A stretch of DNA of 64,000 nt. Origin: Candidatus Magasanikiibacteriota bacterium (GTDB lineage Bacteria; Patescibacteriota; Patescibacteriia; Magasanikbacterales; UBA922). The DNA is taken from positions 492-64,491 of the forward strand of contig DOYU01000021.1 of assembly GCA_003518365.1 (NCBI GenBank), given 5' to 3'. This document shows, in pieces, positions 9,171 through 25,322 of the stretch (position 1 is the stretch's first letter; each line of letters starts with the position of its first letter). The notes under the pieces were generated by a model. That model searched no databases, had not been told where the DNA came from, and saw nothing but the letters and a program-made list of their open reading frames with translations. The translations under genes and the position numbers were made by a program.

Positions 9171-10364
9171 CTACGTGAACAAAACAAACACACTATACAC
9201 TGCTCCAACAGTCAACACGAGCAAGAGCAATGCACCAAGGAGTGCGATATGATGCAATTTATATTTTCCAGGATCAAGATCACCCAATTTTTTTGCGCGC
9301 CAATAAATCAGAAGAATGAGCAACATCTCAATACTACCAAACACACCACCGACAATATTGATCGCGGCAACAAATTGTCGAAGACCTAATAAAAAAATGA
9401 TACAAGGAATACCAAGTGTCACCACCGTCGCAATGCGCCCACTCATATGATAATCCCATGACAGTGAATCTTTGAGCGATACACCATTGAGCAAAAAGCT
9501 GGTCGCCATGGCAAAGAATGCAAACGCATTGCCAAACAAAAACAACGTGTGGCCGAGCCTATTGCCAAGGCCTATCGTTGCAATTTCTGTTGTCCCCTGT
9601 CCTGTCACCCCTACAACGACGAGCGCAAATGTCAGATACAGCGCCATGACGAGCAACCCTCCTATGAGGATCGCGCGACGAAATGCTCCGTTATCATCTT
9701 TCAAAAGGGCATGTATCTCAGGCACTGCTGTCGTACCATGGAGAGAAAATAAGACCACACCATAGGGAAGAAAGAGATAGGCAAGATTTGTGGTATAGAG
9801 ATGGGTGATGTCAATATGTGGCACACTCAGTGACGTGATAAACAACACAATCACCAAAATGCCAATGGTGAGAATCAGTTCAGCGGTCTTCACAGTGCGA
9901 AGCCCGAGCATCACAAGGAGTGCTGCGAATACAAAGAACACCAGACTCCACTCTACGCTACTGCCCCCAAAGAGCGCAGCAAGCGTTTCCCCTTCTCCAA
10001 TCAGATAAATCACGAGCGCGCCAAACAGCATGCCATACATCATGACGGTCATGATCATCCCGCCTGCCTTTCCTAAATATTTTTTTGCAAACCCAACGAG
10101 CTGAAACGACCCATGTGTTCTCACTGCGACTTCGCCAAGCATGAGATTCAGTCCGATCATAAGCGCGCCTAAGCCAATAATATAGAGCACCCCAATCAAC
10201 ACACCCGCTTGTGCTACAGCATAGGGCAATCCGAGCACTCCAGCACCGATCGTCCCACTGATCATGAGTGCAACGCCTTCAGCCATAGAAAGTTTGCGTC
10301 GAAAAATTCCTTGATGCATGGCAAGGTCTGTGATTTCTAGTTGTGGGCGTTTTCGAAAGAACAT
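9171..10364 (-). CDS. Amino-acid permease, Aa_trans / aromatic amino acid (Trp/Tyr) permease-like, 11-12 TM
   Basis: Highly hydrophobic. N-terminal SMAEGVALMISGTIGAGVLGLPYAVAQAG resembles amino-acid/H+ symporters. The start is ambiguous between 10364 and 10319. Confidence 0.55.
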   Translation of the reverse strand: MFFRKRPQLEITDLAMHQGIFRRKLSMAEGVALMISGTIGAGVLGLPYAVAQAGVLIGVLYIIGLGALMIGLNLMLGEVAVRTHGSFQLVGFAKKYLGKAGGMIMTVMMYGMLFGALVIYLIGEGETLAALFGGSSVEWSLVFFVFAALLVMLGLRTVKTAELILTIGILVIVLFITSLSVPHIDITHLYTTNLAYLFLPYGVVLFSLHGTTAVPEIHALLKDDNGAFRRAILIGGLLVMALYLTFALVVVGVTGQGTTEIATIGLGNRLGHTLFLFGNAFAFFAMATSFLLNGVSLKDSLSWDYHMSGRIATVVTLGIPCIIFLLGLRQFVAAINIVGGVFGSIEMLLILLIYWRAKKLGDLDPGKYKLHHIALLGALLLLVLTVGAVYSVFVLFT

Positions 10365-10368
10365 GCGA

Positions 10369-11592
10369 TTAAATAGCAACAAGCGTGATAAGGAGCAACA
10401 GAAGACCAAGTGTTTGCACGGTCACATGATGATGCTGATATCGAATCTCCCAAAAGATATTCATGAGAAGTGCGATGGTAAAGAAACCAATAAAGAAAAA
10501 GAATATGCCATTTGTAATATCAAACAAGTTTGTAATAGAAGACAGCAATGATTTCGAGGCAGTGTATTGTTCGATTGGTGTCATTTGTACTTTTGGCAGG
10601 TGCTGCCAATGCAGTGCATAGCTCACAACGTCACCACTCGCGAGTGTCACACGAAGCTCTGGTGCGAGTACTGCAGAGAAATACTCAGACACAGATTCAT
10701 CAATATCGACTGATCCAGAGACAACTCCATAACTTCCTCCCTCTTCTGTGAGAGGAATCGCCGTGTCACCTATCAATACAGCCGCTGAACGATAGTCTTC
10801 GTTGATACTCGCAAATGCAGCAATACGAAATTGTGTGTCACTGATTTCTTCATACCGAACAAACGAACGATCAATATCAACCGGTGGAAGTGTTTCTTCT
10901 TGAACGTCTTCTGGCTCAACACTCACGGCAACAACTTCAGGTGTTGTATCTTCATCAAGAACAATGTCTTCAGCAACGGTTTCTTCTTCTTTTGTCCCGA
11001 GCACGTCGCCAAATGTGGTACTCGATACCACAGGAGCTGGTTCTTCGATTGCTACAAGGGCAAGTTCAGTGACATCCTCAAGAGGTGTATCGGTTACTTC
11101 TTCAAGAGTAGGAGCAACGACACTGCCAGACTTCTCAGCACCAAAGTGCTGCGCCACATACACGACCGGCACGCCATCATACATTCCTGCCGCGAGTCCA
11201 ATACCAGTATCGTGATATTCTGGATCAATAAGATTTGCCAAATGCGTGGGACTATTCACCCAAGCATTGACGAGCGCGCGTGGATCAGAAAAACCAATGG
11301 CAAGATTTTCTCCTGCGGCGCTGTATGGATAGCCAACATCACTAAGCCAAGATGCCAGAGACTTTCCGTCAGGGCCGGTGTGCGCAAAATACGATGCACT
11401 CGCCATGTCTGTGGCTTTGTGTTGTGATGATGCAAAAAGGCGTTGCTCTGATGTGAGTGGCGCGATACCGTTTGCCACGCGCACCTCATTTGTGAGGGTA
11501 AAGAGTCTTGCCTGCTGATCTGCCAAAACATCTGGGATCACATATACCTCCACAGGAACAAGCAGCACAAAGGCAACCACGATCGCTTTCAT
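10369..11592 (-). CDS. CAP/SCP/PR1-like (YkwD-type) domain protein with signal peptide and C-terminal TM anchor
   Basis: CAP-like block NEVRVANGIAPL...YFAHTGPDGKS...GENLAIGFSDP...VNAWVNSPTHLANLIDPEYHDTGIGLA. The start at MKAIVVAFVLLVPV was chosen as a signal peptide. Confidence 0.6.
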   Translation of the reverse strand: MKAIVVAFVLLVPVEVYVIPDVLADQQARLFTLTNEVRVANGIAPLTSEQRLFASSQHKATDMASASYFAHTGPDGKSLASWLSDVGYPYSAAGENLAIGFSDPRALVNAWVNSPTHLANLIDPEYHDTGIGLAAGMYDGVPVVYVAQHFGAEKSGSVVAPTLEEVTDTPLEDVTELALVAIEEPAPVVSSTTFGDVLGTKEEETVAEDIVLDEDTTPEVVAVSVEPEDVQEETLPPVDIDRSFVRYEEISDTQFRIAAFASINEDYRSAAVLIGDTAIPLTEEGGSYGVVSGSVDIDESVSEYFSAVLAPELRVTLASGDVVSYALHWQHLPKVQMTPIEQYTASKSLLSSITNLFDITNGIFFFFIGFFTIALLMNIFWEIRYQHHHVTVQTLGLLLLLITLVAI

Positions 11593-11732
11593 CGCCAAAA
11601 ATAGTCCACTATAAAAAATCGCCCGCTTTGTATGTAAGATATGCGGATGATAATTGTTCTCGCTATGTGGTATGAAAAAATGCTTGAGGGATGCCATACA
11701 AGAATGTCTGTAGTATAGCAATAAAGGAGTAT

Positions 11733-14399
11733 TTATGACAACGTATCTACCAATGAGTCTGCCAATCCAATATATTTTTCTGGTGTCAGTGTAAAAAGAA
11801 ATTGTTTGTCTTCTTCAGAAATATCAAGTGTTGCGACAAAATTCCTAATTGTTAGGCTATCAAGTCGTGTTCCCCTACTCAATTCTTTTAATCGTTCATA
11901 CGCATCCTGCTGTCCATACTTTCGCAACATGGTTTGGATTGCTTCGGTAACGATTTCCGGATGTGCCTGCAATTCTTGCACAAGCGCAGACTGATTTGGG
12001 GTAATCGTAGCCATTCCTTTTATCATACTTTTTACTGCCAAGAATGCATGCGCAAGTGCTACGCCTTGATTGCGTATCATTGTGCTTCCGCTAAGATCTC
12101 TTTGCATACGTGAGACTGGCAGATGCGTCGCCAATGTTGTAAACAATCCGTTGGCAAGAGCAATATTGCCTTCAGCATGTTCAAAGTGAATCGGATTTAC
12201 TTTATGCGGCATGGTACTTGATCCAACATGTTCTTTCTCTACCATTTGTCCAAACATTCCTCGACTAATATAGAGCCACATGTCTCGCGCCAGATCGAGA
12301 AGGATGGTATTTATACGAGAAACAATCTGATAACTTTCTGCAAGTGAATCATATGTATTGACTTGCGTCGTGAGCAGTAATTGTTCAAAGCCAAGGCTTG
12401 CAAGAAATGATTTGTGAAATCGAGGCCAGTCCACGTGCGCATCGAGTATCTGGTGTGCAGCAAACGTTCCTGTTGCCCCACTGCACTTTGCATCAAATGT
12501 CATGTTTGTAAGATTCGCACGCTGCTTTTTCAGTCTCTCTACAAAGACGGCAATTTCTTTCCCGACCGTAGTGGGTGTTGCCGCTTGTCCATGCGTGAGG
12601 GCAAGCATGGGGAGTCTCGCATGTGTCTTTGCAAATGTGGTTAGTGTGCTCATCAATCTATCAAGCGTTGGAACAAAGACCGTGCTCAGTGAATCACGCC
12701 AGAGTGACAGATATGCAATGTTATTGATATCTTCTGATGTCAGTGCGATATGAATAAAGGGAATTGCATGTGAAAGACCAAGCAATGGCAATCGTTCTTG
12801 CAAAAATATTTCAACGGCTTTTACATCATGATGAATCCTTTTTTCAATCTGTTTTACACGCGCAGCATCTTCGAGAGAAAACAATGTTGAAATGTTTCTA
12901 AGCTGCTCTTTTTGTATGTCTGAAAACGAAACCAACGCCGTGAAGGTTGTTTCTTCTGCGAGTGCAATAAGATATGCAATTTCAATATGCACACGAGAGC
13001 GAATCAATGCGTATTCTGAATGATATGCTGCAAGTTCTTGGACTTGTTCATAATATCGTCCGTCGATTGGGGAAATAGCAGTCAATGCGTTGTCAGCACC
13101 TTCTGCAAGATGTGAAGACAACACAACGGTTTCTGAACGCTTTGGACCAAATGACACAATACCGATCGGACACCCGACTTCTTTTTCTATGAAAGAGAGA
13201 TATGTCTGCACTGCAGGGTCAAATCCTTGCATCGTTGTTGGCATCTCGCCTGTGTACACCTGTTGCCATCCAGAGAGCGTGGTGTACACGGGCTGCGCCT
13301 TTCGCATGTCAGACAAACTTGCCGGCATTTCGTGAACAAGTTTTCCATCAATATAATACGCCGTACATACCTTCAATTCATCAAATCCATTCAAGACATC
13401 GAGCTTTGTAATTGCAATTTCAGTGAGTGGATGTACGCGGGCACTTTGCCTTACTTGCACCAAATCAAGCCAACCAATGCGACGCGCTCTCCCTGTCGTT
13501 GTCCCATATTCTTGTCCAAGTTCGCGGATACGGTCCCCGACCGAATCAGTCAATTCTGTCACAAACGGACTTGTCCCGACACGACTAACGTATGCTTTTA
13601 CCACACCGACAATCCGCTTTGGCGCATTGATGCCAAGTCCACTTCCGACTTCTGCGTGCGCTGCGACATTGTTTGAACTTGTCGTATGTGGATACAATCC
13701 ATGATCAGGATCGAGTGACATTCCTTGTGCTCCTTCAAAAAGGATACGTTTCCCTGCTGTATACGCGTGTGCGAGTTCCACTTCGGTATCAGCAATATAT
13801 TGTTTGAGTTGTTGTCCGTATGCAAGATATTGATTCGTGATTTCTTCTTTTGAAGATTGGAAGGTGCCACGAAGAACATTGGTAATCATGCCCACGTTGA
13901 AATCATACGCTTTGTCCAATTTTTCTCGAAACAGCTCTGGCTCGAGCAAATCGCCCATACGAATTCCATGGCGATACATTTTATCTGCATAGACCGGGGC
14001 AATACCACGCTTGGTGCTTCCGGCAGCGAGCGCACCCTGATGCCCAGAGAGTGCTTCATCCATGGCAATGTGATACGGCATGATGACATGCGCGCGTTCG
14101 CTGATAGCAAGTTTCAGTGGTCTACCGTTTTTTGTGATTTCTGCGATTTCTCCGAGAAGCACGCTGGGATCAATGACAACGCCATTTCCTATCACAGAAT
14201 GGGTGTGTTCAGATACCACGCCACAGGGCAACAGATGCAATTTGTATGTTTGTTCTCCAACGACAATCGTATGCCCAGCATTATTTCCTCCGTGAAATCG
14301 AACAACATACTCTGCATCACTCGCAAGCACATCTGTGATTTTTCCTTTCCCCTCATCCCCCCATTGAGCACCCACGACAACGGTTGTTTGTGGTTTCAT
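11733..14399 (-). CDS. purA-purB: Fused adenylosuccinate synthetase (PurA, N-terminal ~425 aa) and adenylosuccinate lyase (PurB, C-terminal ~445 aa) in one 888-aa ORF
   Basis: N-terminus VVVGAQWGDEGKGKITD...GGNNAGHT is the PurA P-loop. Junction ...IVSFGPKRSETVVLSSHLAEGADNALTAISPIDGRYYEQ... has no stop; I checked it by reading the DNA. The C-terminus carries the fumarate-lyase signature GSSTMPHKVNP and the PurB start motif SPIDGRY. Confidence 0.85.
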   Translation of the reverse strand: MKPQTTVVVGAQWGDEGKGKITDVLASDAEYVVRFHGGNNAGHTIVVGEQTYKLHLLPCGVVSEHTHSVIGNGVVIDPSVLLGEIAEITKNGRPLKLAISERAHVIMPYHIAMDEALSGHQGALAAGSTKRGIAPVYADKMYRHGIRMGDLLEPELFREKLDKAYDFNVGMITNVLRGTFQSSKEEITNQYLAYGQQLKQYIADTEVELAHAYTAGKRILFEGAQGMSLDPDHGLYPHTTSSNNVAAHAEVGSGLGINAPKRIVGVVKAYVSRVGTSPFVTELTDSVGDRIRELGQEYGTTTGRARRIGWLDLVQVRQSARVHPLTEIAITKLDVLNGFDELKVCTAYYIDGKLVHEMPASLSDMRKAQPVYTTLSGWQQVYTGEMPTTMQGFDPAVQTYLSFIEKEVGCPIGIVSFGPKRSETVVLSSHLAEGADNALTAISPIDGRYYEQVQELAAYHSEYALIRSRVHIEIAYLIALAEETTFTALVSFSDIQKEQLRNISTLFSLEDAARVKQIEKRIHHDVKAVEIFLQERLPLLGLSHAIPFIHIALTSEDINNIAYLSLWRDSLSTVFVPTLDRLMSTLTTFAKTHARLPMLALTHGQAATPTTVGKEIAVFVERLKKQRANLTNMTFDAKCSGATGTFAAHQILDAHVDWPRFHKSFLASLGFEQLLLTTQVNTYDSLAESYQIVSRINTILLDLARDMWLYISRGMFGQMVEKEHVGSSTMPHKVNPIHFEHAEGNIALANGLFTTLATHLPVSRMQRDLSGSTMIRNQGVALAHAFLAVKSMIKGMATITPNQSALVQELQAHPEIVTEAIQTMLRKYGQQDAYERLKELSRGTRLDSLTIRNFVATLDISEEDKQFLFTLTPEKYIGLADSLVDTLS

Positions 14400-14470
14400 A
14401 CTATTGCTAATTTACGTTGAACAGTGTCTCCAATATCTGCGTAATCATTTTATAATCAGTGTAATCCATG

Positions 14471-15913
14471 CTAGGTGATAGGATTGACATCATGCACACC
14501 ACTTTCTCGCGAACCAGCGCTGGTGATGCGCACAAATGTTACGTTTTCTTGCAGCTCGGCGATCGTGTGTGCATTGGTGTAGCTCATACCCGAGCGAAGC
14601 CCCCCAACAAGCTGATACACAATATCTGCCACCACACCTTTGTATGGCACGATTGACTCTACGCCTTCTGGCACCACGTGCGATAGTTCTTTTTGTTCTT
14701 GTCCTTTTTGCTGGCGTTTTTGCGCCTGAGTAAAGCTGGCACTACCGCGAGATATTTTGAATTTTTTATCCCCTTTTGTCATCACGACGCCCGGACTTTC
14801 TGCCGTGCCTGCAAACATACTGCCAATCATCACTGTGTCCGCGCCTGCGCCAATTGCTTTCACAATATCACCAGACGTTTTGATGCCACCGTCTGCGATC
14901 ACCGGAACGCCGTATGTTTTTGCCACTTTTGCGACTTCACTCACGGCAGTGAGCTGTGGCATGCCGCAACCGGTGACCAAACGAGTAATACAAATTGATC
15001 CAGGACCCACGCCAACTTTCAATGCATCAACACCTGCGTCACACAAATCTTTTGCCGCCTGCGCAGTTGCGATATTTCCGGCGATGAGTGGGGTGCCTGG
15101 CACGGCTTGTTTTAATGCTGCAATGGCATTGATCATGAGATCAGAGTGTCCGTGCGCGATATCAATCACGAGAACATCTGCGCCCGCTGTCACAACAGCT
15201 TTTGCTCGCTCGACAAAATCCCCATGCACGCCCACGGCAGCACCGACAATCAATCGTCCGTCTGTATCAAGATTTGCATCAGGAAAATCTACACTAAGTT
15301 TCATATCATCACTCGTAATAAGTCCGATAATGGTATTTTCTTCATCAACAAGTGGAAGTTTTTCTATTTTATGCCGTGCAAATATTGCTCGTGCATCTTC
15401 AAATGTTGTTTCTTTATTTCCAACAACAAGTTTTTCTCTTGGCGTCATAATCTGTGATACACGTGTATCACCATTTGGTGCATAGAGAAAATCTCGTCGT
15501 GATAAAATGCCAAGCAATTTTTTATCCGGACTTGCGACGAGCAGACCGGTGATGCCAATATCTGCGACATATTCTTTTGCAGAGGCAACGGTTTGATCTT
15601 GTTCTATGGTATAGGGATCTTCAATAATAAAATTTTGTGCGCGTTTTACACGCTTTACTTCTTCAACATTTTCTTCAATCGTATTGAAACGATGCAATAT
15701 ACCAATACCACCGAGGCGTGCCATGGCAATCGCCATGTCTGATCCTGTCACAGAATCCATGTTTGCTGTGACAATAGGTATGTTGATATCAAGCTGACGC
15801 GTCAATCTTGTTTTTGTCTGTGCATCGCTGCGAGAACTCAATGTAGAACGACGTGGGACGATGAGAACATCATCGTATGTGAGGGCAAATGGGATCTGCA
15901 TAGCAAAAGGCAT
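14471..15913 (-). CDS. guaB: IMP dehydrogenase
   Basis: ALTYDDVLIVP at the N-terminus, tandem CBS domains, catalytic loop GVGPGSICITR, and GGIKTSGDIVKAIGAGADTVMIGSMFAGTAESPG. Start chosen at MPFAMQ, with GGTGG 7 nt upstream. Confidence 0.9.
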   Translation of the reverse strand: MPFAMQIPFALTYDDVLIVPRRSTLSSRSDAQTKTRLTRQLDINIPIVTANMDSVTGSDMAIAMARLGGIGILHRFNTIEENVEEVKRVKRAQNFIIEDPYTIEQDQTVASAKEYVADIGITGLLVASPDKKLLGILSRRDFLYAPNGDTRVSQIMTPREKLVVGNKETTFEDARAIFARHKIEKLPLVDEENTIIGLITSDDMKLSVDFPDANLDTDGRLIVGAAVGVHGDFVERAKAVVTAGADVLVIDIAHGHSDLMINAIAALKQAVPGTPLIAGNIATAQAAKDLCDAGVDALKVGVGPGSICITRLVTGCGMPQLTAVSEVAKVAKTYGVPVIADGGIKTSGDIVKAIGAGADTVMIGSMFAGTAESPGVVMTKGDKKFKISRGSASFTQAQKRQQKGQEQKELSHVVPEGVESIVPYKGVVADIVYQLVGGLRSGMSYTNAHTIAELQENVTFVRITSAGSRESGVHDVNPIT

Positions 15914-16097
15914 AAAAAAACCACCAATTGGCGGCGTGTATACTAAAACGACATCTGCATGAATCCTCCTGTGTAGGATCGTGATTTCTTCATAGCAGAA
16001 GTATCGTAGCATGTTTCTTTTTTGTGGGCAAATACTCGACGAGAAAAGTTATCCGCAGTATACTGATGTGCAGAGCAGCCACAAAAGGAGGTCGCTC

Positions 16098-16397
16098 ATG
16101 CCCGACAATGCACAAAGCAGTGCCAATGGCGATACCCTTAGAGGGAATCCCTACATCGCCCGTGAACATGTCATCCTAAACCCTACAGATCCAAACTACG
16201 GAGGACGTCCCATCCCGAGGATCTGTGATCACTGCGTATTCCAACGCCGTGTGGGTACGACCAAGTACTCTGGTTGTTTGGTGGCCCACCAAAGGCCACT
16301 GACTGCCTTCCAGATCACGCAAGGTGATATACCTGATGTGCTTGATGGCAAACAGGTGGGGAACTACTGCACTTCATGGACACGTGTCGCACGCTGA
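16098..16397 (+). CDS. Small hypothetical Cys-containing protein of 99 aa, GC-rich
   Basis: Strong RBS AAGGAGG 6 nt before the ATG (MPDNAQSS...). Contains CDHC...C...C and is visibly GC-richer than its neighbours. Confidence 0.45.
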   Translation: MPDNAQSSANGDTLRGNPYIAREHVILNPTDPNYGGRPIPRICDHCVFQRRVGTTKYSGCLVAHQRPLTAFQITQGDIPDVLDGKQVGNYCTSWTRVAR

Positions 16398-16439
16398 GCA
16401 GACACGCGCGCGCGCCGGTGAGTCTCGTACTCACCGGCG

Positions 16440-16492
16440 CAGCGCATCAAAAAAAGATGACACATTTGTGCATCTCTTTTTTTATATATACT
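16440..16492. terminator. Tandem hairpins with a T-run after the small Cys protein gene; bidirectional
   Basis: GCCGGTGAG-tctcgta-CTCACCGGC, then AGATGACACA-ttt-GTGCATCT-CTTTTTTTAT. Confidence 0.55.
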
Positions 16493-16503
16493 CTTCCGCT
16501 TTT

Positions 16504-17505
16504 TTATTTTTTTGGTTGCAATGTATCTTGAATGAGCGCCCAATATCGATTGTCATCTTTTTGCGTTTTCATAAAGTACCACCACTCCACACCCCAAAAA
16601 TATACACGAGATGCACCAATGCGTGACGCATAGGAAATATTGTCTGCAAGAAATACCGGATTCATGGTCTGTTCCATGTCTTCGATCGTTGTATCAAGTG
16701 GTGTGCTGTCGGTAAACCATGGCTCTGCTTGCAATTCTGAAACAACAAATTGATCGTGTGGCTTATCCCACAGCGCTGCTTTCAAACGGTAAAAACCTGC
16801 TGGCAGCCACTTGTATGAAAAAATCATACCACCAGGTGTGCGTACTCGTCGATATAATGTAGTTCCTAATACATCTCCAAGTTTGCTTGGTCTTCGCCAT
16901 GATGCGAGTTCTCCACTATCTGTCATAACAATCTTACGATCAGGATCAAGGTGTTGAACCAACGCAAGTTCAGAGTAGACAGCCTCTTGATCAAACCTCG
17001 CACAGTCCCCAAATGCAAATCGGATAAACGCTTCGTTTTCTACTTGCCACAATTCAAGCGCTGGATGATCTTGATAGCGTTCTACAACCGTGCGGACATA
17101 GGCAAGCAGCTTTGTGCGATATGATTCTTGTTCAATACCATTGACCCATGCAGGGACATGGCACTCAGGCCAGCGTGGAGCTTTTTGTCCTACGACCAAC
17201 ATGACTTTCACATTATAGGTTGCTGCTTCTTCCATCATCCAGTCCACATTTGAAAAGTCATACGTACCTTCTTCACTCTCAATATCACTCCACATGGCAG
17301 CAATCCTGATATAGTTTGGATGCAGGTCAGTCAGCATTGCTTGATATGCCTGTCGCCAGTCAAGCCCGAGAGATGTTGCATGGTCAGGACTAAAACTAAT
17401 GCCATAGCCGACGTCGTACGTTTTGTGACTATAGGACCAGAAGACGATCCACAGTGCAAGTGCGATGAGAAGTATTGTGGCAAGAGTATATCCGAGGAGT
17501 TTCAT
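16504..17505 (-). CDS. Membrane-anchored TIM-barrel glycoside hydrolase (GH5/cellulase-superfamily-like)
   Basis: N-terminal TM helix MKLLGYTLATILLIALALWIVFW. WQVENE-type motif (ELWQVENEAF) consistent with a catalytic Glu in an NEP-like context. Many aromatic residues. Confidence 0.45.
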   Translation of the reverse strand: MKLLGYTLATILLIALALWIVFWSYSHKTYDVGYGISFSPDHATSLGLDWRQAYQAMLTDLHPNYIRIAAMWSDIESEEGTYDFSNVDWMMEEAATYNVKVMLVVGQKAPRWPECHVPAWVNGIEQESYRTKLLAYVRTVVERYQDHPALELWQVENEAFIRFAFGDCARFDQEAVYSELALVQHLDPDRKIVMTDSGELASWRRPSKLGDVLGTTLYRRVRTPGGMIFSYKWLPAGFYRLKAALWDKPHDQFVVSELQAEPWFTDSTPLDTTIEDMEQTMNPVFLADNISYASRIGASRVYFWGVEWWYFMKTQKDDNRYWALIQDTLQPKK

Positions 17506-21973: not shown

Positions 21974-22059
21974 GTCAAATCGATTTAATCGTTATTCATA
22001 TCCAGCCCCAAGCTGAATTTTGAAGTATCGTTCCAAGTGCGTCTCACAACGCATGCTAA

Positions 22060-22095
22060 CAAGATAAGACTTACCCTAGTCTTATTTTTTTTACC
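22060..22095 (+). terminator. Rho-independent terminator
   Basis: AAGATAAGACTTA-ccc-TAGTCTTATTTTTTTT. Confidence 0.6.
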
Positions 22096-22176
22096 AAAAA
22101 TTGGATAATGTTTCTATAATAATATACTATATATGATAATCAAGAATATATTATTCAAGATTAATAGATATAGATT

Positions 22177-22827
22177 ATGTATAGAAAAGGAGAAGTCATA
22201 GGTGTCGGGAATGACAAACGCATATATGCTGACGCAATAACTCCTGAGACAAGAGTTATTGCTGAATTTCGCAAGGAACAAACACCTGAAGAAATAAAGA
22301 GTGTGTACTATCTTGGGAACATAGCTCATATATTATTCCCTCAAAATGTACCCAAAGTATATGAAGCAGGGATGCATCCACAAGAACATACGAAAGTAGA
22401 AAGAAAAAAGGTGGATGTCAATCATAAAAATACGGCTGATCTCATGGTGACATACGAAGATTATTTCATGGGAGATGGTGAAACGGGACCTTCTTCAGAA
22501 GAAGATAGTGAGATGGATGTAGATATAGAAAAAAAAGAAACCGATCCAAGAGTAAAACAACTTTTAACAAAAGCGTCTTCTGTCGGATTATATTTTGATA
22601 CAGGCGGACAAAATTTTTCTTTTGACGATTTGGGTACTGTCCAATATCTTGAAGTGAATCCAGCATTTCATATAGAAAAAAACCACGTCCGTTTGCACTT
22701 CAACGAAAGCAAATTAAGAGATGCCATACAAGCATTAGAAAATGAAAAAGAGAAAAAAAAGGCTACACTATATTTCGAACGATTGATGTCTTTGATCCAA
22801 GTAGCACAAAATAATCTTATACAATAG
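22177..22827 (+). CDS. Hypothetical acidic protein of 216 aa, AT-rich, apparently monocistronic between two terminators
   Basis: No recognisable motifs and an acidic middle region (SSEEDSEMDVDIEKKE). Confidence 0.4.
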   Translation: MYRKGEVIGVGNDKRIYADAITPETRVIAEFRKEQTPEEIKSVYYLGNIAHILFPQNVPKVYEAGMHPQEHTKVERKKVDVNHKNTADLMVTYEDYFMGDGETGPSSEEDSEMDVDIEKKETDPRVKQLLTKASSVGLYFDTGGQNFSFDDLGTVQYLEVNPAFHIEKNHVRLHFNESKLRDAIQALENEKEKKKATLYFERLMSLIQVAQNNLIQ

Positions 22828-22911
22828 TTCCAACTTCCTCCTTCCTCTACGATCCCCTGCACCTCCTGCAGTAGCTCCTGCCGGCAGGCAGGTTAGCGAA
22901 GGCACGGCACT

Positions 22912-22946
22912 TGAAAAACAGAGTGAAAAACACTCTGTTTTTCTTT
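22912..22946 (+). terminator. Rho-independent terminator
   Basis: AAAACAGAGTG-aaaaa-CACTCTGTTTTTCTTTTTG. Confidence 0.65.
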
Positions 22947-22951
22947 TTGAC

Positions 22952-23212
22952 ATGAAGGGAAGAACGGAGTATTGTACAAGTAAACATATACATTATATTG
23001 GTATGGCTCATCAAAAAAATACAATCGGAAAAAACATCAAACGATTACGGCAAGAACAAAAAATTTCCCAAGATCGTCTTTCAAAACTTGCGGATCTTTC
23101 TTTGAATACTATTGTTACCGTTGAAAGTGGCGCAAACGAAAATCCTACTATTGATACGCTCACAAGGATTGCGAAAGCGTTTCAAGTTGGCGTGGATGAC
23201 CTCATAACATAA
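22952..23212 (+). CDS. XRE-family HTH transcriptional regulator, first gene of the defence operon
   Basis: IGKNIKRLRQEQKISQDRLSKLADLSLNTIVTVESG is a classic Cro/C1 HTH. The true start may be the internal Met at 23003. Confidence 0.75.
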   Translation: MKGRTEYCTSKHIHYIGMAHQKNTIGKNIKRLRQEQKISQDRLSKLADLSLNTIVTVESGANENPTIDTLTRIAKAFQVGVDDLIT

Positions 23213-23220
23213 CACCCACT

Positions 23221-24198
23221 ATGTCTAAACAAACACCTACCAATAATCTCGCTATCTACCAAGCTAAAAACGGCGCGATTGAATTTCGCGGTGATTTTGA
23301 GCAAGAGACGGTTTGGGGAAATTTAAATCAAATTGCCGATCTTTTTGGTCGCGACAAGTCCGTTGTTTCCCGCCATATAAAAAACATCTATAAAACAGGC
23401 GAATTAAACGAAACGGCAACTGTTGCAAAAATTGCAACAGTTCAAAAGGAAGGAAGGAGAGAAGTGATGCGTGAAATTGAGTACTTCAACCTTGATGTTA
23501 TTTTGTCCGTTGGGTACAGAGTAGATTCCAAGCAAGCCACGCAATTCCGCAAATGGTCAACGCAAGCGCTCAAGGCACACCTTGTAGACGGGTATACCAT
23601 CAACAAAAAACGCATCGGTAATAACTACGAACACTTTTTGCGTGCAGTGGCAGAAACAAAAGCACTCCTCCCTGTGGGCAACAAGGTTTCTACCGAGGAT
23701 ATACTTGAACTCGTGAACGCATTTGCTGCTACGTGGTTTTCGCTCGATGCATATGACAAAGACGCATTTCCTCAAAAAACAGCCTCAAAAAAGTCAGTTT
23801 CAGTTGACACTGTAAAGCTACTCAATGCGATTGGTGAGTTGAAGCAAGAACTGATAACCAAAAAGCAAGCAACAAACCTATTTGCACAAGAAAGGAAGAC
23901 GGGAACAGTAGAAGGAATCGTCGGAAATGTATTTCAGTCTGCCTTTGGCAAAGATGTATATCCAAGTATAGAAGAAAAGGCCGCACACATCCTCTACTTC
24001 ATGGTAAAAAATCATCCATTCACCGATGGCAACAAGCGCAGCGGAGCCTTTGCATTTGTTTGGTTTCTACGAAAAGCTGGTTTACTCCGACCAAGTCTTA
24101 CTCCAGAAGCGTTGACTGCCATTACCCTCCTCATTGCAGAGAGTAATCCAAAAGATAAAGACAAAATGGTGGGACTAGTGGTGATGTTAATCAAATAA
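23221..24198 (+). CDS. RhuM-family N-domain fused to a Fic/Doc-type C-domain
   Basis: RhuM-like N-terminus: NLAIYQAKNGAIEFRGDFEQETVWGNLNQIADLFGRDKSVVSRHIKNI...YFNLDVILSVGYRVDSKQATQFRKWSTQ. C-terminal HPFTDGNKRSG matches the Doc/Fic motif HxFx(D/N)GNKR. Confidence 0.7.
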   Translation: MSKQTPTNNLAIYQAKNGAIEFRGDFEQETVWGNLNQIADLFGRDKSVVSRHIKNIYKTGELNETATVAKIATVQKEGRREVMREIEYFNLDVILSVGYRVDSKQATQFRKWSTQALKAHLVDGYTINKKRIGNNYEHFLRAVAETKALLPVGNKVSTEDILELVNAFAATWFSLDAYDKDAFPQKTASKKSVSVDTVKLLNAIGELKQELITKKQATNLFAQERKTGTVEGIVGNVFQSAFGKDVYPSIEEKAAHILYFMVKNHPFTDGNKRSGAFAFVWFLRKAGLLRPSLTPEALTAITLLIAESNPKDKDKMVGLVVMLIK

Positions 24199-24200
24199 CT

Positions 24201-25322
24201 ATGGCAAATAAAAACCTTACAAAAGCAAAAAAGGCAAAAAATGATGAATTTTATACTCAATTTTCAGATATTCAAAAAGAAGTTGAGTCTTATCTTGAGT
24301 ATAACCCAGATACTTTTAAAGATAAGATAATTTACAGTAATTGTGACGACCCGTTCGAAAGTAATTTCTTTCGCTATTTTGTATTAAATTTTGATCGTTT
24401 AGGACTAAAGAGACTTATTTCAACGAGCTACAAACCCTCACCTGTTGCCAATACGCAACTGGGATTATTTGGCGATGACAAAACACTTGAAAAAGTAAAA
24501 GGCCGTCCAAAAGTAACCGCTAACAAATTCATCATCAACGAAGTTGGCGATATCGACGGCGACGGCTCTTTTACGCTAGAAGATATTGCCCAACAGCTTC
24601 GAGCGAATAAAAATAACGAATGGACTCCGCTTGAGGGCGATGGTGATTTTAGAAGTGCCGAATGTGTCGAGTTGCTCAAACAATCTGACATCGTAGTTAC
24701 TAATCCTCCATTTAGTTTATTCCGTGAATATATTACGCAACTTTTCGAACACAAAAAGCAATTTCTAATTATTGGTAGCATGAACTCAATTACTTACAAA
24801 GAAATCTTTGTGTTGATTAAAAATAATAAATTGTGGTTAGGTAATGGGTTTAATGCTGGCAATGCATATTTTTCAACTCCCAATGCGCGAAAAGATTTTG
24901 CTTCTGGTGTGTATGATGAAAAAACTGGTCTTGTAAAATTTCGGAATTGTCATTGGTTTACTAATTTAGATCATGGTCGTCGTCATCAGCCTCTTAATCT
25001 GATGACAACAAATGAAAACCTAAGATTTAATAAAAAAATGCAAGGCAAAACTACTTATGATCGTTATGACAATTATGACGCTATTGATGTACCATTTACA
25101 AAAGCTATCCCTTCTGACTACGAAGGAGTAATGGGTGTTCCTATAAGCTTTCTCGATAAGTACAATCCTAATCAGTTTGAGATATTGGGCTCTGACACAG
25201 ACATAAAAGAAGGTAAACTTCCACTTTTAATAATAAGTAAATGGAATGGAAAGCTAGACAGAGGTTATATACATGGAAAGAGAATCTTCAGTAGAATGTT
25301 TATTAAGCACAAAAAGAAATAA
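24201..25322 (+). CDS. N6-adenine DNA methyltransferase (NPPF motif), tentatively EcoRI-methylase-like family
   Basis: TNPPF catalytic motif in [15 protein letters not shown]-terminal [10 protein letters not shown] block. Starts 3 nt after the upstream stop. Confidence 0.6.

Follow-up and report, generated by a model that had tools for sequence, protein, structure and literature searches.

An in-frame PurA-PurB fusion that would place the IMP-to-AMP branch on one polypeptide in Candidatus Magasanikbacteria

Adenylosuccinate synthetase (PurA; EC 6.3.4.4) converts inosine monophosphate (IMP), aspartate and guanosine triphosphate (GTP) to adenylosuccinate and is active as a dimer, in which R143 completes the IMP site of the partner subunit. 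Adenylosuccinate lyase (PurB; EC 4.3.2.2) yields adenosine monophosphate (AMP) and fumarate from adenylosuccinate; it is a tetramer, in which several subunits contribute residues to the active sites. Fused purine enzymes are well characterised in the de novo pathway to IMP (trifunctional GART, bifunctional PAICS, and ATIC/PurH). Here we describe a gene encoding PurA and PurB as one protein, located in a 64,000-nucleotide (nt) stretch of DNA from a Candidatus Magasanikiibacteriota bacterium (GenBank assembly GCA_003518365.1, contig DOYU01000021.1, positions 492 to 64,491; the whole stretch is called the window below). Like GART, PAICS and ATIC, the encoded protein joins pathway neighbours in one chain; unlike them, it belongs to the IMP-to-AMP branch. 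Our analysis indicates that this is very probably a genuine bifunctional PurA-PurB of Candidatus Magasanikbacteria, which arose a single time, when the purA of a compact gene pair lost its stop codon.

The fused purA-purB gene (11733..14399, minus strand) is a single uninterrupted open reading frame (ORF) of 888 codons plus stop, running from ATG to stop in one frame in both the ORF list and the raw sequence. The PurA domain (amino acids (aa) 1-427; 13119..14399, minus strand), which aligns with solved PurA structures, is followed by the linker SSHLAEGADN (aa 428-437; 13089..13118, minus strand), delimited by alignment with unfused relatives, and then by a PurB domain of the E. coli type with ASL_C (aa 438-888 and the stop codon; 11733..13088, minus strand). 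A sequence-only reading of the window had proposed an in-frame fusion of 888 aa with neither stop codon nor frameshift at the junction; we found one ORF with both enzymes at full length in Pfam and NCBIfam, and the junction reads ...FGPKRSETVVLSSHLAEGADNALTAISPIDGRY... exactly as quoted in that reading; the strand, which the reading left unstated, is minus. The junction tryptic peptide of the fused protein is SETVVLSSHLAEGADNALTAISPIDGR.

In Pfam, Adenylsucc_synt (PF00709) covers aa 7-425 with all profile positions (1-416/416, 530 bits), Lyase_1 (PF00206) covers aa 447-743 (140 bits), and ASL_C (PF08328) covers aa 763-877 (129 bits). Both halves score above NCBIfam equivalog cut-offs: the PurA half for NF002223 (527.7 bits, cut-off 402) and TIGR00184 (460, cut-off 395.55), and the PurB half for NF006764 (568.3 bits, cut-off 446; aa 437-887). 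TIGR00928, which models the other PurB subtype, scores slightly under its cut-off on the PurB half (322.1 vs 326.2), as is expected for an E. coli-type PurB. The phage succino-amino-deoxyadenylate synthase PurZ (NF038379) was rejected as an identity for the PurA half, scoring 125.6 bits against a cut-off of 300.

We then compared each half with its stand-alone counterparts, with residue numbers carried over from E. coli PurA and PurB via structure-sequence alignments. The PurA half shows full-length homology to stand-alone PurA (E values of 1e-108 to 1e-121), aligning end to end with residues 4-426 of 431 of the E. coli enzyme (1ADE) and matching the Bacillus anthracis enzyme (4M0G) with an E value of 8e-122. 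The PurB half is likewise homologous over its full length to stand-alone PurB of the ASL_C type (2PTS/2PTR; 1e-112 to 1e-120), aligning with residues 5-455 of E. coli 2PTS (E 2.5e-112) and matching the Legionella enzyme 3BHG (E 1.7e-120). The differences lie where the halves meet: unlike stand-alone PurA, the PurA C-terminus runs past L427 into the 10-residue linker and PurB, and unlike stand-alone PurB, the PurB N-terminus is tethered to PurA, with the original start methionine gone.

The active sites themselves are conserved. In the PurA half the P-loop GDEGKGK is intact at aa 14-20, the catalytic residues D15 and H43 correspond to E. coli D13 and H41, and K18, N40, T129 and R143 correspond to K16, N38, T129 and R143, as Q225, T302, R304, R306, K332 and D334 do to Q224, T301, R303, R305, K331 and D333. 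The P-loop, the catalytic Asp/His pair and the residues for IMP, aspartate and guanine specificity (E. coli N38, T129, R143, Q224, T301, R303, R305, K331 and D333) are thus identical throughout. In the PurB half the lyase signature loop GSSTMPHKVNP is intact at aa 726-736, so that the earlier statement that both signature motifs are preserved stands; the catalytic S727 corresponds to E. coli S295 and H603 to the general acid H171, and the SSTMPHKVNP loop is shared with stand-alone PurB. H524, T554/S555 and Q679 are equivalent to H91, T122/S123 and Q247, and K733, N735, E740 and R767 to K301, N303, E308 and R335. Every one of the 12 PurA and 9 PurB functional residues compared with E. coli is identical. 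No second purA or purB copy was found within the 64-kb window.

The fusion is reproduced well beyond this contig. At least 16 contigs, obtained from several Rifle-aquifer samples and with different assemblers, encode an identical 888-aa protein; they come from two metagenome-assembled genomes at NCBI (GCA_000998635.1, GCA_001000125.1), ENA re-assemblies of three further samples from the same aquifer series, and an independent MEGAHIT assembly. Five of six retrieved gene copies are identical in nucleotide sequence and the sixth carries 3 silent differences, with the ORF intact and the protein unchanged; the flanks of the gene vary among strains across these six copies. The source records assign the protein to Candidatus Magasanikbacteria, and the organism, from groundwater, thus belongs to a group of tiny-celled bacteria within the candidate phyla radiation (CPR; Patescibacteria). 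When a single genome for each GTDB species was scanned, the same single-ORF fusion was found in two further species of Magasanikbacteria from a different site series (L007, PFLZ01000047.1; L008, PFPJ01000040.1), with 78-79% protein and ~74% nucleotide identity to the window gene. The linker keeps the frame and has the same length in each of the three. Since the fusion is reproduced across assemblies and conserved across species, an assembly error is effectively excluded.

Unfused Magasanikbacteria point to the origin of the gene. In these relatives, at 56-67% identity, purB comes right after purA as a gene of its own with the same orientation, and the proteins are 64-67% (PurA) and 51-55% (PurB) identical to those of the window. 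The intervals between the two genes differ: in L010 purA ends ...GPKRSETIFR-TAA and purB starts at once, in the same frame, with ATG-IEELNKISPIDGRY; in L009 an in-frame TAG is followed by 14 codons before the methionine; in L014 the stop and start overlap (ATGA); in L011 TAG is followed by a short out-of-frame spacer; L013 and L016 have gaps of ~180 nt; and L023 has another gene between purA and purB. At L009 1217-1366 and L010 7225-7374, purA and purB share one frame with a single stop (TAG and TAA, respectively) between them. Judged from these junctions, L009 and L010 are one point mutation short of the fused state, and stop-codon read-through in either, if any, would already yield the fused protein.

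The adjacent pairs (L009, L010, L011, L013, L014, L016) share gene order, orientation and orthologous proteins with the fused gene; both a stop codon (TAA, TAG or TGA) and the purB start are retained in them and are missing from the window clade. From this comparison we infer that the adjacent, separate purA-purB pair is the ancestral state. Neighbour-joining trees (100 bootstraps), built for PurA, for PurB and for the two concatenated, placed the three fused species in one clade with 100/100 bootstraps in each tree, nested among unfused species. Because the fused clade is monophyletic and nested among species with adjacent, unfused purA-purB, a single fusion event by stop-codon loss is indicated, and the simplest history suggested by these sequences is the loss of one purA stop in an ancestral compact purA-purB pair. 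Separate genes in related genomes, which the sequence-only reading had regarded as potentially damaging to the fusion, do occur in the more distant relatives, where they show how the fusion originated and do not point to an error; the fused homologues that it had proposed to look for were found in L007 and L008, under purifying selection.

The junction alignment identifies the likely remnants of this event. Unfused relatives have a PurA that ends at the L427 equivalent or within a few residues of it, and the equivalent of the former purB methionine lies at approximately position 435-437; because of these two positions, the linker SSHLAEGADN most likely represents the old purA stop codon, the spacer and the purB start. 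In each of the three fused species, 18 residues separate the last PurA motif (GPxRxxT) from the first PurB motif (SPxDGRY), which is what the two free tails add up to in E. coli (9 + 9); the two proteins are therefore joined end to end, and no spacer has been added.

Sequence evolution after the fusion differs sharply between the domains and the linker. Among the three fused lineages the PurA domain has 84-87% protein identity and a ratio of nonsynonymous to synonymous substitution rates (dN/dS) of 0.06-0.10, and the PurB domain has 72% protein identity and a dN/dS of 0.11-0.14. The stretch used for the linker statistics (aa 429-440, 12 aa), which covers most of the linker at aa 428-437, has 33% identity, unchanged length, and a dN/dS of 0.63-0.73 between the window and either relative. 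These values show that both domains are under purifying selection and that the linker evolves almost freely. Synonymous divergence among the fused lineages (dS) is 1.1-1.8 per site; the reading frame has therefore remained open while synonymous sites changed more than once on average, and both catalytic halves are constrained.

If both domains are active, the N-terminal PurA domain would convert IMP, aspartate and GTP to adenylosuccinate, and the C-terminal PurB domain would convert this to AMP and fumarate, so that the whole IMP-to-AMP branch would lie on one polypeptide, encoded directly downstream of guaB, the gene for the first enzyme of the competing branch from IMP to guanosine monophosphate (GMP). 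With R143 and the active-site residues of PurB conserved, the fused protein must still form the PurA and PurB interfaces, and its assembly is most likely a central PurB tetramer to which four PurA domains are attached, these pairing as dimers either within or between particles. Expression of the two enzymes at a fixed 1:1 ratio, and active sites for successive reactions lying close together at the IMP branch point, would be the likely benefits; true substrate channelling may also occur. Several points weigh against this proposal. The tethering of a dimer-forming to a tetramer-forming enzyme by a short linker could be sterically awkward, and the kinetic advantage is conjectural, as the fusion could be a nearly neutral result of stop loss in a compact operon. 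In addition, PurB may also be needed as a phosphoribosylaminoimidazolesuccinocarboxamide (SAICAR) lyase in de novo purine synthesis, for which related lineages have genes. We considered the notion that PurB is needed here for AMP synthesis only; de novo purine genes are absent from the 64 kb, but related lineages have complete, heavily fused operons, and we do not rely on it.

The alternative that survives best is that the fusion is real and selectively neutral, the fused product simply working as well as two proteins with no gain in channelling or regulation. It differs from a bifunctional PurA-PurB of single origin in why the fusion persists and not in what it is, and it fits the observations equally well; we regard it as a serious possibility, at somewhat less than an even chance. 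The one-mutation distance of L009 and L010 from fusion and the join made with no designed spacer both favour it, as does the frequency of fusions: 2 fused among about 47 Magasanikbacteria-like species loci in the scan of one genome per GTDB species, and about nine proteins with both domains among the best 150 of 28,478 matches in a library of 1.84 billion cluster representatives. Conversely, the fusion has outlasted more than one synonymous substitution per site with no stop or frameshift regained, and PurA/PurB fusions have arisen independently several times and in both orders, which suggests at least a mild advantage.

This recurrence emerged from a search of 5.8 billion proteins. Fusions in the PurA-PurB order were P0002 (875 aa, from two JGI samples), P0028 and P0031, and those in the PurB-PurA order were P0005 (NCBI, Candidatus Microgenomates), P0006, P0008, P0010, P0013 and P0015; PurB-PurA-HAD proteins (P0003, 1296 aa, and others), a Ham1-PurB-PurA protein (P0012, 1374 aa), and a PurB-PurA fusion with PurB of the ADSL_C type (P0062, 144 member sequences) were also present. 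Like the window protein, they carry both enzymes in one polypeptide, and the linkers of the PurA-PurB forms are similarly short, with 16-20 residues between motifs; they differ from it in their independent origins, in the mostly opposite order, in the extra domains of some, and in the PurB subtype of P0062. Because their identity to the window protein is low (33-44%) and their orders and partners differ, several independent fusion events are indicated. These comparisons suggest that PurA/PurB fusions are rare, yet have arisen several times and in both orders. P0008, for which seven contigs were read (longest listed 1.05 Mb), lies next to NUDIX and IMP dehydrogenase genes; at L090 6001-10563 a PurB-PurA of 871 aa is followed by a NUDIX hydrolase and an IMP dehydrogenase; since this PurB-PurA lies near IMP dehydrogenase, the link to guaB recurs in an unrelated fusion lineage.

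A second alternative retains the single gene but has the two enzymes made or used separately, by internal initiation near the junction or by proteolysis of the linker. We modelled the protein as a single chain with AlphaFold2 from a 25-sequence alignment. Both domains were confidently folded, with a mean predicted local distance difference test (pLDDT) score of 82, and the linker was predicted to be disordered (pLDDT < 50 at aa 429-435); other low-confidence stretches include aa 722-734, the lyase catalytic loop. The relative orientation of the domains is undefined because the predicted template modelling score (pTM) was only 0.53. A linker disordered as in this model could be accessible to proteases, and codon 439 of the window gene is an in-frame TTG, both of which would favour separate products. 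The TTG is not conserved, however, being CTG in L007 and TTA in L008; the three fused lineages have neither an in-frame start codon nor a Shine-Dalgarno-like motif in common at the junction, and in each of them the ATG of the ancestral purB has been replaced. Separately made enzymes are accordingly an unlikely outcome.

That one domain has lost catalysis and been turned into a regulatory or scaffolding module is still less probable, indeed very much so: nothing specific favours it beyond the general possibility that exists for fused paralogous or enzymatic domains, and it is opposed by the retention of all examined catalytic and binding residues in both domains, by strong purifying selection on both, by scores of both above NCBIfam equivalog cut-offs, and by the single purA and purB within the window. 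Least credible, to the point of being negligible, is an artefact in which two separate genes appear joined since the consensus dropped the stop codon or frameshift that divides them, as might be imagined from the separate adjacent genes of close relatives and the metagenome-assembled source genomes, given the identical ORF in different samples and assemblies (at least 16 contigs, the variant with 3 silent differences among them) and the same in-frame fusion with the same linker length in two other species from another site at ~74% nucleotide identity.

Upstream of the fused gene, at a distance of 71 nt and on the same strand, lies guaB (IMP dehydrogenase; 14471..16012, minus strand), and the adjacency to guaB noted in the earlier reading is thereby borne out. 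This ORF shows 49.9% identity to an IMP dehydrogenase from another locus (tblastn) and carries IMPDH and CBS domains in precomputed Pfam matches at an identical locus. The guaB and fused genes probably form one transcription unit. A promoter and terminator scan of 10200-16600 gave counts not clearly above those of shuffled controls, with nothing convincing between guaB and the fused gene, and an Rfam scan of the whole window returned three tRNAs only; neither a purine riboswitch nor any other regulatory RNA was found close to guaB or the fused gene. No de novo purine genes were found within the 64-kb window.

Directly downstream of the fused gene is an ORF of 450 aa with a CAP domain (cysteine-rich secretory protein; 10369-11721, minus strand), which overlaps or abuts the end of the fused gene, has hydrophobic segments at both termini, and shows no obvious link to purine metabolism; an amino-acid transporter gene comes after it. 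Several genes past guaB, at about 22000-24400 of the window (positions 1-2400 of L001-L004), we observed a region that varies among strains of the same population and contains an EcoRI-like methylase, Fic/RhuM-domain genes and helix-turn-helix (HTH) genes. Contigs differ in whether the Fic/RhuM gene there is complete or is split or partly missing, and only some of them carry one of the HTH genes.

Fusion of purine genes was also observed in related lineages with PurA 58-63% identical to that of the window, where the de novo purine operons consist almost entirely of fused genes (L094 3768-19186, GCA_900089805.1, FLOH01000114.1; L093 8006-17037, GCA_041294365.1). The L094 operon encodes PurA-PurM (783 aa), PurC-PurE (493 aa), PurF-PurD (933 aa) and PurN-PurH (712 aa), together with a large PurL, FolD and a separate PurB; the L093 operon encodes FolD, PurA-PurL (1242 aa), PurM and PurQ-PurC-PurE (946 aa). 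Purine-gene fusion thus seems pervasive in this group. In some Magasanikbacteria and Parcubacteria a HAD-family hydrolase is N-terminal to PurB in stop-to-stop ORFs of 712-773 aa (L012 7292-9442, L018 3581-5716, L022 3657-5975 and L032 2917-5064), in L012 directly after purA; HAD is C-terminal in P0003 (PurB-PurA-HAD, 1296 aa), and in P0012 (1374 aa) the PurB-PurA part has a Ham1/ITPase-like domain in front of it. One possibility for the HAD domain of HAD-PurB is a nucleotidase. Six of the loci (L010, L015, L017, L023, L024 and L026) are titled 'uncultured Gammaproteobacteria bacterium' in their records; their PurA is 62-66% identical to the Magasanikbacteria protein, the purA...purB arrangement of L010 and L023 is as in Magasanikbacteria, and these labels are probably wrong.

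A bolder extension of the bifunctional PurA-PurB, which we hold to be doubtful, is that a C2 PurA dimer placed ~18 residues from a D2 PurB tetramer could force a defined assembly, either a closed particle or an open filament or lattice, that channels adenylosuccinate between active sites. The protein would then be a covalent 'mini-purinosome' of the AMP branch, in one operon with GuaB, and part of a broader and so far undescribed trend in Magasanikbacteria and related CPR lineages to weld purine enzymes (PurA-PurL, PurA-PurM, PurC-PurE, PurF-PurD, PurN-PurH, HAD-PurB).

We also asked how the architecture is recorded. A full-text literature search found no description of a PurA-PurB fusion; two matches for 'bifunctional adenylosuccinate' have, by title and abstract, a subject other than a PurA-PurB fusion, and NCBIfam contains no bifunctional PurA-PurB model. 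Public records name the protein 'Adenylosuccinate synthetase' only (KKS52285.1, KKT03874.1, KKT25731.1, HCC14005.1), and the other fusions are likewise named for one half only in their sources. The earlier suggestion that such a fusion is undescribed therefore holds in part, in that no paper describing one was found, while the protein itself has GenBank accessions and other PurA/PurB fusions are present in public data. The architecture is new and apparently undescribed in the literature searched, and is presumably visible in the architecture tables of InterPro and UniProt. The enzymes and their chemistry are textbook, and the protein is a fused variant with an unusually clear origin, not a new kind of system.

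Because the enzymes and chemistry are textbook, the significance of the finding is moderate, and fusions of consecutive purine enzymes are already familiar. As a case of fusion birth it is very clean, with sister species that keep the 'one stop codon away' state. If active as a single chain, the protein would be a natural one-polypeptide converter of IMP to AMP and a model for the channelling of purine-nucleotide intermediates, and it would show how a dimeric enzyme and a tetrameric one can be joined with no loss of function. Naming after one domain would lead metabolic reconstructions of small genomes to score purB wrongly as missing. The main uses of the fused protein would thus be as a model of channelling and of assembly between mismatched oligomers, and in the correction of annotation.

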